Assembly (NCBI RefSeq): GCF_044324875.1
Contig: NZ_CP172185.1
Strand: one strand, 5' to 3'
Source: Escherichia coli
GTDB lineage: Bacteria; Pseudomonadota; Gammaproteobacteria; Enterobacterales; Enterobacteriaceae
Length of the DNA: 64,000 nt
Position 1 is the stretch's first letter. Each line of letters begins with the position of its first letter. Shown here piece after piece: positions 1,769 through 33,781 of the stretch. Position numbers and translations under genes: made by a program. The notes below the pieces were generated by a model. The model was not told the DNA's origin and did no database searches. It saw only the letters and a program-made list of their open reading frames with translations.

Positions 1769-3990
1769 GCTGTAATAAATAACTGACCCAATACGACATT
1801 CAGCTTAATAAATACATAAGGGTCGATTCTTATATGCCAGCAATGGCAGGGATTCGCACAACCTTAAAACAGCAATGAGGTTTATCAATGAGCACTGATA
1901 AAGAAACTTTTGCGCTATATTGCGAAGCTAAAAATGACAAAGTCAGAAAACGCCTTGGGATTAAAGGTGGTTTTTACTGGACTACAGCAAAAAAATTATC
2001 TGTTGCCATCTCCCGCTGCATTACCGCAATGGATGATAACGATTATGATGAAGACGACTTTAAAAAACCTGTTCGCGTCCATTTGCCCGTTGTTGATGAC
2101 CTTCCACCGGAAGGCGTGTTTGATACCGAATTCTGTAACCGGTATGAAAAAGGCGGCGAAGATGGCATCACAATGATATTTATCGCGCCTCCGCCATCCG
2201 CGCAGGACAAACCAGCCAGCACTGACAACACCAATGTTAATGGCGAAGACATGACTGAGATTGAGGAGAATATGCTTCTGCCGGTTTCAGGTCAGATTCT
2301 GCCTGTTCGCTGGCTGGCGCAACACGGCGGCGAAAAACCAGTAACGCACGTTTCGCGGGATGAACTGCGCTCATTACATAACGCACAGGAAGAAAAACTT
2401 CCCGCCGTTACCGCGCTGGCCATCTCAAATAAAGCAGCGCAACTCGAACCGCTGGAGATTCGGGATTTGTACAAACTGGTGCGGGACACTGACAAAGTTT
2501 TTCCCGCTCCCGTAAATTCAGACCTGGGACTGATGACCTCCTTCATCGAAGCATACCTGGACGCTGACTACACTGATCGTGGTCTGCTTACAAAAGAGTG
2601 GATGAAAGGAAATCGTGTTTCTCGCATCAGTCGCACACCATCCGGCGCTAACGCTGGCGGCGGTATTCTTACCGATCGCGGCGAAGGTTTTGTGCATGAT
2701 AATGCGTCAATGGCATTCGATGTTGCTACAGGAAAACTGGCTCGTTCGATGGATGTGGATATTTACAGCATGCATCCTTCACATACCAGACGTGTTAACG
2801 AAATTATCGCAGAAAATGATCCCTGTTTCTCCGTCTTCCTTAAGGCTTTTCTGAACATGCCAGGCGGGATGGATTATTCCCGCGCCATCGTGGTTGCCTC
2901 CGTGAAAGAAGCACCGGTTGGTATAGAGGCTATGCCCCACCGCGTCACCGAATACCTGAATAAAGTGCTGACCGAAACCGATCATGCCAACCCTGATCCG
3001 GAAATCGTGGATATTGCCTGCGGTCGTTCCTCTGCACCAATGCCGCAGCGTGTAACAGAAGAAGGAAAACAGGATGATGAAAAAAAACCGCAACCGTCTG
3101 GCGCAATGGCAGATGAACAGGCAACTACTAAAACAGTGGAACCGGATACAACTGAACATCATCCGGACACGCAGACGCTGGATGCTCGGCCGCAGGTGAA
3201 TTCTGTTGATGCGAAATATCAGAAACTGCGGGCAGAACTCCATGAAGCCCGGAAAAACATTCCGCCCCAAAATCCTGTCGACGAAGACAAATTGCTGGCA
3301 ACCTCTCGCGGAGAATTTGCTGAAGGGATTAGCGACCAGAATGATCCGAAATGGGTGAAGGGGATTGAAACCCGCGATTCTGTGAACCAGAATCAGCAAG
3401 AAACGGAACAGAACGACCAGAAAGCGGAACAAAACAGCCCAAATGTGCAACGAAAAGAGCCAAAAGCGAAACAATCCGAACCAGTAGCGCAACAGGAACC
3501 GGAAAAAGTCTGCACCGTCTGCGGTCAGAGCGGTGTCGACAACTGTCCTGATTGTGGCGTGGTGATGGGCGACGCAACATACCAGGAAATGTTCGATGAA
3601 GAGAATCAGCCTGAAGTTCAGGAAAATGATCCAGAGGAAATGGAAGGCTCTGCGCATCAGAACAAGGAGAACTCTGGCGGCAATCAGCATCATGCCAGCG
3701 ATAGTGAAACTGGCGAGACGGCAAATCCCTTAATTAAGATAACCAGTCATCACAAATATAAGTCCACAAGCAAAACGTGGTATCACCTGATGATCGACCT
3801 TGAAACAATGGGAACCAACACCAATGCACCCATAGTAGTTATTGGTGCGGTTTTCTTCGACCCGGAAACAGGGGAAATCGGGCCGGTATTTTATATCGTT
3901 ATCAGCCTGACTGACGCAATGAATACAGGGGCTGTTTGAACCGCCCCGGGAATCCTGGAGACTAAACTCCCTGAGAAAGAGGTAAACAGA

Positions 3991-4317
3991 ATGACTAAAA
4001 ATACTCGTTTTTCCCCCGAAGTCCGTCAGAGGGCGATTCGTATGGTTCTGGAAAGTCAGGGCGAATATGACTCACAGTGGGCGGCAATTTGTTCCATTGC
4101 CCCAAAGATTGGCTGTACACCGGAGACTCTGCGTGTCTGGGTACGCCAGCATGAGCGGGATACCGGAGGCGGTGATGGCGGGCTCACCACCGCTGAACGT
4201 CAGCGTCTGAAAGAGCTGGAACGTGAAAATCGTGAACTGCGCCGCAGTAACGATATCCTTCGCCAGGCTTCCGCTTATTTTGCGAAGGCGGAGTTCGACC
4301 GCCTCTGGAAAAAGTGA
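3991..4317 (+). CDS. IS629 transposase OrfA (108 aa)
   Basis: Recognised IS3-family OrfA sequence; stop overlaps orfB start in ATGA. Confidence 0.9.
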
Positions 4318-5204
4318 TGCCACTGCTGGATAAGCTGCGTAAGCTGTACGGGGTCGGACCGGTATGCAGTGAACTACATATTGCCCCGTCAACGTATTAC
4401 CACTGTCAGCAACAGCGACATCATCCGGATAAACGCAGTGCCCGTGCGCAGCGCGATGACTGGCTGAAGAAAGAGATACTGCGCGTATACGATGGGAATC
4501 ATCAGGTATACGGTGTGCGTAAAGTCTGGCGTCAGTTGTTACGGGAAGGAATCAGGGTAGCCAGATGTACAGTGGCGCGCCTCATGGCGGTTATGGGACT
4601 TGCCGGTGTTCTCCGGGGTAAAAAGGTCCGCACTACCGTCAGCCGGAAAGCCGTTGCCGCAGGCGACCGCGTAAACCGTCAGTTTGTGGCAGAACGTCCT
4701 GACCAGTTGTGGGTGGCTGATTTTACTTACGTCAGCACATGGCAGGGGGTCGTCTATGTGGCGTTCATCATTGATGTGTTTGCCGGATACATCGTGGGGT
4801 GGCGGGTCTCATCGTCTATGGAAACGACATTCGTGCTGGATGCTCTGGAGCAGGCGTTATGGGCCCGTCGACCGTCCGGCACAGTCCATCACAGTGATAA
4901 AGGTTCTCAGTATGTATCGCTGGCCTACACACAGCGGCTTAAGGAAGCCGGATTACTGGCATCAACAGGAAGTACTGGTGACTCGTATGACAACGCGATG
5001 GCGGAGAGCATCAATGGCCTTTACAAAGCGGAGGTAATACACCGTAAGAGCTGGAAAAACCGGACAGAAGTGGAGCTGGCCACACTCACGTGGGTGGACT
5101 GGTATAACAATCGACGATTGCTGGAAAGGCTGGGCCATATCCCACCGGCAGAAGCAGAAAAAGCTTATTATGCTTCCATCGGAAACGATGATCTGGCAGC
5201 CTGA
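4314..5204 (+). CDS. IS629 transposase OrfB (296 aa, DDE integrase-like catalytic domain)
   Basis: IS3-family OrfB; overlaps orfA by 4 nt. Confidence 0.9.
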
Positions 5205-5706
5205 GTTCACAGATAAAACACTCTCCAGGAAACCCGGGGCGGTTCAGTTCCTGATGGTGGCACCATCGAATGGTGGCTGAAGCAGTCCAGCGAAGCCAGA
5301 GCTGCCATTTTAACTGACCAGGTAAAAATGAAAGATGCCCTTTTGCGTTTTCGGGAATTCGTCAATGAACACTCCGATGAAAAATTCGTTCAGGTGTGGG
5401 GTAATGGCGCAACGTTCGATAACGCAATTTTGCGCACCTCATACGAACGTCTGGACATCCCCTGTCCGTGGCATTACAGCAACGATCGTGATGTACGCAC
5501 AATCGTTGAGATGGGGAAAATCACAGACTTCAATGCCAGAAGCGTAATTCCATTCGAAGGCGTGCGCCATAATGCTCTGGATGACGCTCTTCACCAGGCA
5601 AAATACGTAACAGCCGCTATACAAAAACTGATCCCGAATCAGGCTGATTTTTAATGTTCAACAGTCGCCAGTTGTCGTTGCTATTCTGCAACTGGCGCGT
5701 TCCGGA

Positions 5707-5985
5707 GTGATAGCCATGAGCGAACAGTACCTGATAACGCTCGATGAGTGGAAACCAAAACGGTTCAGTCTCCCAATAACAAACACTACCCTGGTGAAAT
5801 ATGGAAAACTAGGATACATCGTTCCAAGACCACAAAAAATTCGTGGGCGTTGGCTGATAGATCGCCGGGCAGTATTTGTTGGGCCAGGTGAAACAGGAAT
5901 TGCGCCGGAAATTCATACTGGCGATGATGATGCACTGAAGGAGATTTTAACTCATGTCACCGAGGCCACGAAAAAACAGCACTGA
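5707..5985 (+). CDS. xis: Prophage excisionase-like protein (92 aa)
   Basis: Small basic ORF directly upstream of and overlapping the integrase start by 32 nt. Confidence 0.6.
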   Translation: MIAMSEQYLITLDEWKPKRFSLPITNTTLVKYGKLGYIVPRPQKIRGRWLIDRRAVFVGPGETGIAPEIHTGDDDALKEILTHVTEATKKQH

Positions 5986-7072
5986 CGTAGCCGGTCTTTA
6001 CGAAAAGTTTGATCGCAGAACTGGCAGGGTTTACTACCAGTATAAAAACCCTGTGACTGGAAAATTTCACGGTCTCGGAACAGACAAATGTAAGGCAGAA
6101 AAAATCGCTTCCACAGCCAATCAGCGAATAGCTGCAGCAGAAGCTGAATATTACATGCGCAAAATTGATGAAAGTCCGTCAGCAACAAAACGTCGGGGTA
6201 TCAGATTAAAGGCATGGGTTGAACGATATCTGAAAATACAGGACACACGACTAAAAAATGGAGATATTGCAGCTACAACCCACAAAGAAAAAGCCCGAAT
6301 GGCTGCATACCTGGTTTCCCGTCTGGGAAACCACCCATTGAAAGAACTGGAAGTAAGAGACTTTGCATTGATACTGGATGAGTGGCTGGATAAAGACATG
6401 GTCAGCACGGCGAGAGTAAACCGTGGATTATGGGTTGATATTTATAAAGAAGCACAGCATGCAGGGGAAGTTCCTCCCGGATGGAATCCTCCGGAGGCTA
6501 CCCGTAAACCGATCCCTAAAGTAAGCAGAGCCAGACTCACCCTGGAAGACTGGCAAAAAATTTACAATGCAACGCCTGAAAGGCACTTTATTCGTAACGC
6601 AATGCTTCTTGCAATTGTTACTGGTCAGCGCCGTGATGACATTTGCCACATGCGTTTTTCAGATGTGTGGAACGAACACTTGCATATCACCCAGGGAAAA
6701 ACCGGAATGCGTCTGGCGTTACCGCTTACACTCCGCTGTGATGCCATTGGGATAACGTTAAAAGAAGTTATTGATGGATGCCGAGACAGAATATTAAGTC
6801 CATACCTAATCCATAGTCGGCACCAGAAACAACCAAAACCGATGAGTAAAGACAACCTGAGCGACTACTTTGCCAAAGCACGGGATCTGGCTGGGATAAT
6901 TCCACCAGCAGGAAAAACTCCTCCCACATTTCATGAACAACGCTCTCTATCAGAACGGCTGTACCGTACGCAGGGTATCGATACAAAAACATTACTGGGA
7001 CATAAAATCCAGGCAACCACCGATCGCTATAACGATACCCGAGGTCAGGAATGGGTTAAGTTGGTTATTTGA
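5954..7072 (+). CDS. int: Prophage tyrosine integrase (372 aa)
   Basis: C-terminal catalytic signature HxxR (HEQR) and terminal Tyr (DRYNDTR); N-terminal arm-binding-like region; lies at the prophage/host junction. Confidence 0.9.
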   Translation: MSPRPRKNSTDVAGLYEKFDRRTGRVYYQYKNPVTGKFHGLGTDKCKAEKIASTANQRIAAAEAEYYMRKIDESPSATKRRGIRLKAWVERYLKIQDTRLKNGDIAATTHKEKARMAAYLVSRLGNHPLKELEVRDFALILDEWLDKDMVSTARVNRGLWVDIYKEAQHAGEVPPGWNPPEATRKPIPKVSRARLTLEDWQKIYNATPERHFIRNAMLLAIVTGQRRDDICHMRFSDVWNEHLHITQGKTGMRLALPLTLRCDAIGITLKEVIDGCRDRILSPYLIHSRHQKQPKPMSKDNLSDYFAKARDLAGIIPPAGKTPPTFHEQRSLSERLYRTQGIDTKTLLGHKIQATTDRYNDTRGQEWVKLVI

Positions 7073-7238
7073 CAAACACCATATGGAATATCCGTCACCA
7101 TCTCAGGAAAAAAGTGTTGTAAAATGCGTGGCCTTGTTTTGGGGAAAAGTTTTGGAGAGATTTTGGAGAAAGGAAAAAATTGAATAAATTCAAAATCCTG
7201 AAAGTGCTCCACCTTATGAATAAAAAGGTGGAACTCGA
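7073..7238 (+). promoter_or_regulatory. attR region with three direct repeats TTTTGGRGA (7137-7145, 7150-7158, 7161-7169) and a short open frame ending ...NKKVELE* that overlaps the potC start like the potB 3' end
   Basis: Repeats read from sequence; the phage/host boundary must lie in this interval because int ends at 7072 and potC starts at 7239. Confidence 0.5.
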
Positions 7239-8033
7239 ATGATCGGTCGACTGCTTCGCGGCGGTTTTATGACCGCTATCTACGCGTACCTGTATATCCC
7301 AATCATTATTTTGATTGTGAACTCCTTTAACAGCTCGCGCTTTGGCATCAACTGGCAGGGTTTTACCACCAAATGGTATAGCCTGCTGATGAACAACGAC
7401 AGCCTGTTACAGGCAGCGCAGCATTCACTAACAATGGCGGTGTTTTCGGCGACGTTTGCTACGCTTATCGGTTCACTGACGGCAGTTGCGCTGTACCGTT
7501 ATCGCTTTCGTGGTAAGCCGTTCGTTAGCGGAATGCTGTTTGTGGTGATGATGTCACCAGATATCGTGATGGCGATTTCGCTGCTGGTGCTGTTTATGCT
7601 GCTGGGTATTCAGCTTGGCTTCTGGTCGCTGCTGTTCTCGCATATCACCTTCTGCCTGCCATTTGTGGTGGTGACAGTGTATTCGCGCCTGAAAGGTTTT
7701 GACGTGCGAATGCTGGAAGCGGCGAAAGATCTCGGTGCCAGCGAATTTACCATTCTGCGAAAAATCATTCTGCCACTGGCAATGCCAGCGGTAGCGGCGG
7801 GCTGGGTGTTAAGCTTTACCCTGTCGATGGACGATGTAGTAGTTTCTTCGTTCGTCACCGGACCAAGCTATGAAATTCTGCCGTTAAAAATTTATTCGAT
7901 GGTCAAAGTCGGCGTATCGCCGGAAGTTAACGCGCTGGCAACCATATTACTGGTGCTGTCGCTGGTGATGGTAATTGCCAGCCAGCTTATTGCTCGTGAT
8001 AAAACGAAAGGTAACACAGGGGACGTTAAATGA
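7239..8033 (+). CDS. potC: Spermidine/putrescine ABC transporter permease PotC
   Basis: 264-aa ORF recognised as E. coli PotC. Confidence 0.95.
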   Translation: MIGRLLRGGFMTAIYAYLYIPIIILIVNSFNSSRFGINWQGFTTKWYSLLMNNDSLLQAAQHSLTMAVFSATFATLIGSLTAVALYRYRFRGKPFVSGMLFVVMMSPDIVMAISLLVLFMLLGIQLGFWSLLFSHITFCLPFVVVTVYSRLKGFDVRMLEAAKDLGASEFTILRKIILPLAMPAVAAGWVLSFTLSMDDVVVSSFVTGPSYEILPLKIYSMVKVGVSPEVNALATILLVLSLVMVIASQLIARDKTKGNTGDVK

Positions 8034-32347: not shown

Positions 32348-33781
32348 TTAGTGGTTACGGATGTACTCATCCATCTCGGTTTTCAGGTTATCGGATTTAG
32401 TACCGAAAATCGCCTGAACACCAGAACCAGCAACCACTACGCCCGCTGCGCCCAGTTTCTTCAGGCCAGCCTGATCCACTTTAGACACATCAGCAACGCT
32501 GACGCGCAGACGGGTAATACATGCGTCGAGGTTAGTAATGTTTTCTTTACCACCAAATGCAGCAACCAGAGCCGGTGCCATTTCGCTGGTACCTGTCGCT
32601 TTTGCATCTTCAGTCGCATCTTCACGACCCGGCGTTTTCAGATCCAGTGCTTTAATCAGCACGCGGAAGATGGTGTAGTAAACAATCGCATAACCGATAC
32701 CGACGATCGGGAACAGCCACAGTTTGCTGCTGTTACCAGACAGAACGATGAAGTCGATCAGACCGTGCGAGAACGACGTACCGTCACGCATCCCCAAAAG
32801 AATACAGATTGGGAATGCCAGGCCTGCCAGAATCGCGTGGATGATATACAGGATCGGCGCAACGAACATGAAGGAGAACTCGATCGGCTCGGTGATACCG
32901 GTCAGGAACGAGGTCAGCGCCGCGGAGATCATAATACCGCCCACTTTCGCGCGGTTTTCTGGTTTAGCAGAGTGCCAGATAGCAATTGCGGCAGCTGGCA
33001 GACCGTACATTTTGAACAGGAAGCCACCAGACAGTTTACCCGCAGTCGGGTCACCCGCCATATAACGCGGAATGTCGCCGTGGAAAACCTGACCTGCTGC
33101 GTTGGTGTATTCACCAATTTGCATCTGGAAAGGTACGTTCCAGATGTGGTGCAGACCAAACGGTACCAGGCAACGTTCGATGAAACCGTAAATGCCAAAC
33201 GCAACTACCGGGTTCTGGTAAGCAGCCCACTGAGAGAAGGTCTGGATTGCAGAACCAATCGGCGGCCAAATGAAGGACAGCACAACGCCAGTAAAGATGG
33301 CAGCCAGGCCAGAAATGATCGGCACAAAGCGTTTACCGGCAAAGAAGCCAAGATACTCAGGCAGCTTAATACGGTAGAAACGGTTAAACATATACGCTGC
33401 AATCGCACCGGAGATAATCCCTCCGAGTACGCCAGTATCCGCCAGGTGTTTAGAGGCGATTTCTTCAGCAGGTAAATGCAGTACCAGTGGCGCAACCACG
33501 GCCATGGTTTTAACCATGATGCCATAGGCAACAACTGCAGCCAGCGCGGATACGCCATCGTTATTGGTAAAGCCGAGGGCGACACCGATCGCAAAAATCA
33601 GTGGCATGTTTGCAAAGACGGAACCGCCTGCTTCTGCCATAACATGCGATACAACGGCGGGCAGCCAGCTGAAATTCGCGGAACCGACGCCCAGCAGAAT
33701 ACCTGCGATAGGCAGTACGGATACCGGCAGCATCAGCGATTTACCGACCTTTTGCAGGTTAGCAAATGCATTCTTAAACAT
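32348..33781 (-). CDS. ptsG: Glucose-specific PTS enzyme IICB
   Basis: 477-aa ORF recognised as PtsG. Confidence 0.95.

Follow-up and report, generated by a model that had tools for sequence, protein, structure and literature searches.

The three direct repeats TTTTGGRGA that follow the integrase gene of an E. coli prophage at potB|potC are very probably the int-proximal (P'-arm) arm-type sites of a lambda-family integrase, as predicted from comparison of the sequence with its relatives. The window, i.e., the whole stretch of 64 kb that was analysed, holds, upstream of the junction, the right-hand end of a lambdoid prophage that lies between potB and potC (Table 1). The initial annotation had described three such repeats beside the integrase, 11-13 bp apart and located between the int stop and a predicted att core, and had taken this as the expected place and arrangement for integrase arm-type sites. 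Its coordinates and description are exact when read against the sequence (start-to-start spacing of 13 and then 11 bp), the core is now resolved, with the repeat triplet lying between the int stop (7072) and the core at 7217-7223, and the assignment as predicted arm-type sites is borne out by lambda-like geometry, copies on the far arm, an arm-binding domain in Int, conservation among relatives and covariation with the Int N-terminal domain. The element is of a kind already known: it falls in the integrase clade of phage 21 and e14, and its motif differs from that of phage 21 by one base.

Table 1. Features of the potB|potC junction, positions relative to the overlap centre (int-sense orientation, overlap centre = 0) and lambda counterparts
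Feature	Location (window position unless stated)	Strand	Position from overlap centre	Lambda counterpart	Sequence or remark
xis, excisionase, 89 aa	5716..5985	+			Pfam Exc match; overlaps int start
int, integrase, 372 aa	5954..7072	+			lambda-type arm-binding N-terminal domain (residues 1-64) and tyrosine recombinase catalytic domain
Outer edge of conserved int-proximal arm	7116..7136	+			homology to the window resumes here in alleles with ~0.9 kb of cargo after int
Outermost predicted arm-type site	7137..7145	+	-83..-75	P'3, -83..-74	TTTTGGGGA
Middle predicted arm-type site	7150..7158	+	-70..-62	P'2, -72..-63	TTTTGGAGA
Innermost predicted arm-type site	7161..7169	+	-59..-51	P'1, -62..-53	TTTTGGAGA
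A/T-rich spacer, third repeat to core	7170..7207	+			length kept, sequence diverged; candidate bending/IHF (H'-like) region
Phage-side core-type half-site	7208..7215	+			TCCACCTT (core CACCTT); inverted repeat with 7225-7232
Common core and putative 7-bp overlap (crossover)	7217..7223	+			TGAATAA; identical in attB, attL and attR
Bacterial-side core-type half-site	7225..7232	+			AAGGTGGA; within last potB codons
potC, host gene	7239..8033	+			marks bacterial side of junction; potD further downstream
Far arm, P2 position				P2, +103..+113	no P2-like inverted site found
Far arm, P1-like predicted site	EcPNK006, L033		+127..+135	P1, +131..+145	exact TTTTGGAGA
Far arm, second copy	EcPNK006, L033		+141..+149	no counterpart	TTTTCGAGA, one mismatch
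attB (empty site)	strain LD39-1, L002				...CGTCTGC TGAATAA A AAGGTGGAACTCGAATGA...
Far junction	strain EcPNK006, L003				...CGTCTGC TGAATAA G AAGGTGAGCGAATTAGATGATTAA...
Window junction	this window				...CTCCACCTTA TGAATAA A AAGGTGGAACTCGAATGA...

To resolve the att sites, we compared the empty site with attL and attR, as represented by LD39-1, EcPNK006 and the window. Homology to the empty potB-potC site starts at 7217, and TGAATAA is centred in the inverted repeat CACCTT-N9-AAGGTG. The comparison of attB with the far and window junctions therefore places the prophage in the last codons of potB, with the end of PotB in EcPNK006 changed from ...NKKVELE to the phage-supplied ...NKKVSELDD. The window junction, which int adjoins, is the equivalent of lambda attL (B-O-P'). 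A natural contiguous attP, with both phage arms joined, is provided by an IMG/VR contig (L033), agrees with the reconstructed attP and carries the same five sites. Two "phage" records matching the window (ON470612 and ON470619) were rejected as attP, as they are prophage cut-outs with bacterial flanks; most IMG/VR loci end exactly at the int stop, without the arm, and the MK422450 record is without the other prophage end. Two further details of the core region were observed. The phage-side core-type half-site occurs in two E. coli alleles, GCTCCACCTT and GTCCCGCCTT (window 7205-7224; L001, L004, L033, L042), and the base at 7224, immediately beyond the putative overlap, is A in the window junction vs. 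G in the ON470619 (L001) junction, which may be a host polymorphism or may mean that the crossover region is one base longer than we infer.

This junction is common. The potC side is matched in 5424 of 5426 complete E. coli genomes and the whole int-potC junction in 1395 of the same 5426 (about a quarter). The window prophage shares its chromosomal insertion site with prophage Sp6 of E. coli O157:H7 Sakai, which is located at potC/potB (PMC8190617), and some Stx phages are also found there according to the literature. Our search of the literature found no published description of the Sakai Sp6 attP arms.

The arrangement of the repeats relative to the core closely follows that of lambda (Table 1). 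The repeats are located 51-83 bp from the core centre, on the phage (int) side, and are unlike the core-type sites in sequence. Lambda, too, has three tandem direct repeats on the arm at the int 3' end, and the layout of the core is alike in both phages, i.e., 6-bp inverted half-sites, a 9-bp spacer and a 7-bp overlap (CAGCTT-T-TTTATAC-T-AAGTTG in lambda vs. CACCTT-A-TGAATAA-G-AAGGTG here). The arm-site sequences, however, are unrelated (TTTTGGAGA here vs. C/AAGTCACTAT in lambda), and the insertion here is within an operon, whereas lambda inserts between gal and bio. Since the opposite end of this prophage falls outside the window, the far arm was read from related genomes, namely the 98.8%-identical junction of EcPNK006 (its attL) and the natural attP contig, in which the 9-mer that the initial annotation had proposed to look for near the opposite prophage end is indeed present, exact at +127 and with one mismatch at +141. 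Both copies have the orientation of the proximal sites, just as lambda P1 is oriented like the lambda P' sites, although the second copy here lies outside the P1-like site while lambda's P2 lies inside.

As for the DNA between the sites, the third repeat and the core half-site are 49-50 bp apart in 10 loci at three insertion sites, all of the subclade of this Int, and the sequence of the spacer has diverged among them. On the far arm, the IHF consensus is matched perfectly at +106..+118 (WATCAANNNNTTR) and with one mismatch at +37..+49; the int-proximal spacer, from the repeats to the core, has no IHF consensus with one mismatch or fewer, only weak matches (at least two mismatches). A prophage of Citrobacter sp. 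Cu233 (L094 2711-2800), whose Int is 76% identical, also occupies the potB|potC position, and its arm spacer has diverged with an array-to-core distance of exactly 49 bp.

The integrase itself carries the domain that arm-type sites call for in lambda. Residues 1-64 match the Pfam arm DNA-binding domain (PF09003, E 4e-21), and the protein shares 35% identity with Int of lambda and 44% with that of phage 21. In the AlphaFold model, residues 1-75 (pLDDT 87) have a beta-beta-beta-alpha fold (three strands and a helix), and each of the 8 best Foldseek matches in the PDB is a lambda Int structure that contains the N-terminal domain (2wcc, 1kjk, 1z1b and others), the complex with P'2 DNA among them (probability 0.95-1.00, E 0.02-0.2). 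The domain architecture of Int and the fold of its N-domain are common to lambda and this prophage.

The repeats are also conserved well beyond this prophage. We scanned one genome per species, which gave 80 Enterobacterales loci with Int 43-76% identical, and submitted these to an unbiased search for any 9-mer that occurs three times with at most one mismatch and a spacing of 10-15 bp. The search was positive in 51 of the 80 loci, and all triplets found began with TTTT and were spaced 13/11 or 13/12. Within 400 bp after int, such a triplet was present in 48 of 75 related loci, as opposed to none of the 75 upstream windows, none of the 75 windows inside int and none of the 75 shuffled downstream windows. 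With a looser pattern and a longer reach, TTTTNNNNN triplets with 13/11 or 13/12 spacing were found in 73 of 89 Enterobacterales loci (Int identity 42-98%). Among named phages, all those read have a triplet directly after int, which is TTTTGGGGA three times at 13/12 spacing in phage 21 and, at 13/11 spacing, TTTTGATAA three times in Klebsiella phage Kp4865-4, TTTTGCAGA three times in PPompW and TTTTGGGGA, TTTTGG(T/A)GG and TTTTGGGGA in PSTCR8lys and ST13-OXA48phi12.4. A literature search for the 9-mers returned only unrelated primer or oligonucleotide matches.

These data bear directly on whether the repeats could be a functionless coincidence or a remnant of slippage, as might be argued for a sequence this short and of such low complexity. 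TTTTGGRGA has four matches on both strands of the window, against an average expectation of 0.92 per 64 kb in dinucleotide-preserving shuffles, and a stretch of 33 bp holds three of the four; the remaining one, which lies within an ORF on the minus strand (32791-32799), looks like a chance match. Further, substitutions among E. coli alleles affect the first spacer and bases immediately beside the 9-mers, which are themselves free of them. Together with the frequency of the triplet among relatives and its absence from the control windows, the comparative data effectively refute a chance origin, to which we assign a probability close to nil.

The position of the array is tied to the core rather than to int, as is evident where cargo follows int (L004, L126, L149, L152 and e14), in which cases the array is beside the core. 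In alleles with cargo, homology to the window resumes at the outer edge of the arm (Table 1), and the arm therefore remains joined to the core. The cargo between the int stop and the array consists of a DUF2335 gene and a hypothetical gene in L004 (2097-3000) and of lit, ymfE and ymfD in e14 (L175 1980-5180); the interval from int to the P' arm is a moron insertion hotspot. The array is likewise found at a fixed position relative to the core in relatives inserted at icd, ompW, dcp and others.

The latter finding also weighs on a different interpretation, i.e., that the repeats are a transcription signal (a regulator site, a promoter or a terminator) concerned with int read-through into potCD. 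Such a role would suit a prophage that cuts the potABCD operon and whose int-potC region is without a + strand terminator, but the array accompanies the core at genes unrelated to pot and the repeats recur on the far arm. Moreover, a scan of 6900-7400, from int to potC, detected no promoter on either strand and no + strand terminator, and we dropped the transcription-signal interpretation because of this result; we consider it highly improbable. On the host side, the operon is cut between potB and potC (window 7073-7242; L003 7359-8222), leaving potC without the upstream operon. Because this upstream operon is lost and neither a promoter nor a + strand terminator was detected in the int-potC interval, potCD may rely on prophage read-through.

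The closest known systems, along with lambda and Sakai Sp6, are phage 21 and e14. Phage 21 belongs to the same Int clade as this prophage and has one more TTTTGGGGA copy beyond its icd-derived core region, and its variable half (GGGGA) is one base apart from the one here (GGAGA). It inserts in icd, and its arm is much longer because a 165-bp icd replacement sits between the array and the core, whereas the arm length of the present prophage is lambda-like. "Repeated dodecamers" in phage 21 were reportedly suggested as arm recognition sites in Schneider's 1992 thesis, as cited by Wang et al. in 1997, and the same sources are said to give a minimal phage 21 attP of 366-418 bp; the outermost phage 21 copies in M61865 span ~400 bp, which fits this size. 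In E. coli K-12, the cryptic prophage e14 shares the triplet architecture of the window prophage, with TTTTGATAA three times at 13/11 spacing adjoining the att core and a far-arm copy 118 bp inside its other end. Its array is 3.2 kb from intE (with lit, ymfE and ymfD as the intervening cargo), and its motif class, GATAA, is unlike that of this prophage and is matched by its own N-domain signature (NLYPLYSRK...YWRY).

A copy of the phage-specific motif on the far arm, in like orientation, was found in phage 21, Kp4865-4, PPompW (with one mismatch) and e14, in each case ~110-120 bp past the core region; the chance of such a copy is 2-14% per phage. The Providencia phage PSTCR8lys (L008/L011) has the proximal triplet but no far-arm copy with at most one mismatch in the 300 bp past its presumed core, and its attP may be organised differently or its core may be misplaced. 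A second element was also observed on the far arm: TTTTCTCT follows the far-arm copy by ~13-14 bp in both phage 21 (L005 2507-2515) and Kp4865-4, despite their different motif classes, and the corresponding place in the present element holds TTTTCGAGA (L003 8335-8343). This second element may represent either a weak arm site or a site for some other protein.

The question of which protein reads the repeats can be approached through their variation. Four motif classes were distinguished, GGRGA (36 loci), GATAA (18), GCAGA (15) and ACTGA (4), and the TTTT half is invariant across all of them. The most class-informative Int columns are residues 18, 21, 8, 29 and 19, and in the AlphaFold model the class-informative residues are located in strands beta1 (15-20) and beta2 (25-31), in the turn between the two and in the N-terminal tail. 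When sequence identity was used to predict whether two loci share a motif class (2278 locus pairs), the AUC was 0.88 for Int residues 8-45, 0.55 for residues 66-185, 0.58 for residues 186-372 and 0.63 for Xis, values that describe the data and should not be read as probabilities, given that the sequences are related and non-independent. Per-column mutual information failed to separate Int from Xis (mean scores of 0.24 and 0.26, respectively), but the pairwise AUC did. Judged from sequence covariation, these patterns point to the Int N-domain and away from Xis.

Lambda Xis binds three head-to-tail sites ~10 bp apart (X1-X1.5-X2), and three tandem direct repeats at roughly helical spacing beside an Exc-family xis gene could accordingly be taken as binding sites of the excisionase (the recombination directionality factor) instead of Int, the more so as some Xis alignment columns show an association with motif class. 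We regard this as very unlikely. The motif occurs on both arms and is not confined to one, the repeats occupy the int-proximal arm, whose lambda counterpart carries P' sites instead of Xis sites, and motif class follows the Int N-domain well but Xis poorly; within the GGRGA class, the site is kept across Xis proteins that are as little as 17-32% identical. It is very unlikely, too, that the phased T-tracts represent a mere intrinsic bend or a host-factor (IHF/Fis) element that Int does not read in a sequence-specific manner. The TTTT runs recur every 11-13 bp, their T half is the same in all classes and the adjoining spacer is rich in A-tracts, all of which a bend could explain, but the non-T half is kept within each phage, is repeated on the far arm and shifts with the Int N-domain. 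A pure bend would not need such a half, and its conservation and tracking of Int therefore count against it; the repeats are also unlike the IHF consensus. Hence, we favor the interpretation that the repeats are arm-type sites read by Int.

In lambda, an Int monomer places its N-domain on an arm site and its C-terminal domains on a core site (PMC4880445). By analogy, each Int monomer of this prophage would grip a repeat via its small N-terminal domain and a core-type site via its C-terminal domains, and bending in the 49-bp A/T-rich spacer, by IHF or by intrinsic curvature, would let one protein bridge the arm and the core. The resulting intasome would integrate into potB|potC and, with Xis, would excise. 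For the invariant TTTT half, the probable reader is the invariant basic N-terminal tail (RPRK); for the variable half (GGAGA here), it is a set of beta1/beta2 residues (about 16-21 and 29). For comparison, the beta-sheet of the lambda arm-binding domain is known to enter the major groove and its tail to become ordered on DNA, as reportedly found by Fadeev et al. (2009), a study cited in PMC4880445.

More tentatively, and with somewhat less than even confidence, we suggest that the arm site may be a two-part code, with an invariant TTTT and a variable pentamer (GGRGA, GATAA, GCAGA or ACTGA) set by a few beta1/beta2 residues, and that this module may be swapped independently of core and insertion-site specificity. 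The elements at icd carry three arm classes (GATAA, GGGGA and GCAGA; L123, L169, L172, L005 and L175), and among them phage 21 (GGGGA) and e14 (GATAA) have a common attB and a different class. Cross-excision between these two is reportedly poor, which the class difference would fit. If the two-part code is true, elements with a common attB could stay mutually non-excising, and the classes could be ready-made orthogonal arm/N-domain pairs for engineering. The covariation of discrete classes with a handful of N-domain residues, and their decoupling from the insertion site, may be of specialist interest, and are unsurprising.

With respect to the broader value of these results, a functional attP is defined, at the level of predicted sites, for a prophage type that is very common in E. 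coli (that of the Sakai Sp6 site), which helps in setting exact prophage boundaries and in predicting excision competence. The comparison also yields a searchable att signature for a large Enterobacterales integrase clade, namely the TTTTNNNNN triplet with 13/11 spacing, whose distance to the core half-site is 49-50 bp in the prophage's own subclade and much longer in icd-inserting relatives such as phage 21, as well as a candidate map that links residues of the lambda-type arm-binding domain to the bases they would specify. This comparative by-product may be more useful than the attP itself; current understanding is not overturned.

Finally, a few features of the surrounding DNA were observed. 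An IS3-family element (window 3940-5250), with overlapping orfA/orfB transposase ORFs (3991-4317 and 4314-5204), splits the exonuclease gene of the prophage into two pieces (1888-3939 and 5328-5654); the homologous gene is intact in EcPNK006, and continuous alignment to the EcPNK006 prophage is confined to window 5252-7300. On the far arm, there are two G+C-rich hairpins, GCCGTT/AACGGC at L003 8265-8282 (+71..+88) and CTCCCCGAC/GTCGGGGAG at L003 8390-8417 (+196..+223), which could terminate potB or tail-fibre transcripts or could act like lambda sib/tI on int read-through transcripts.
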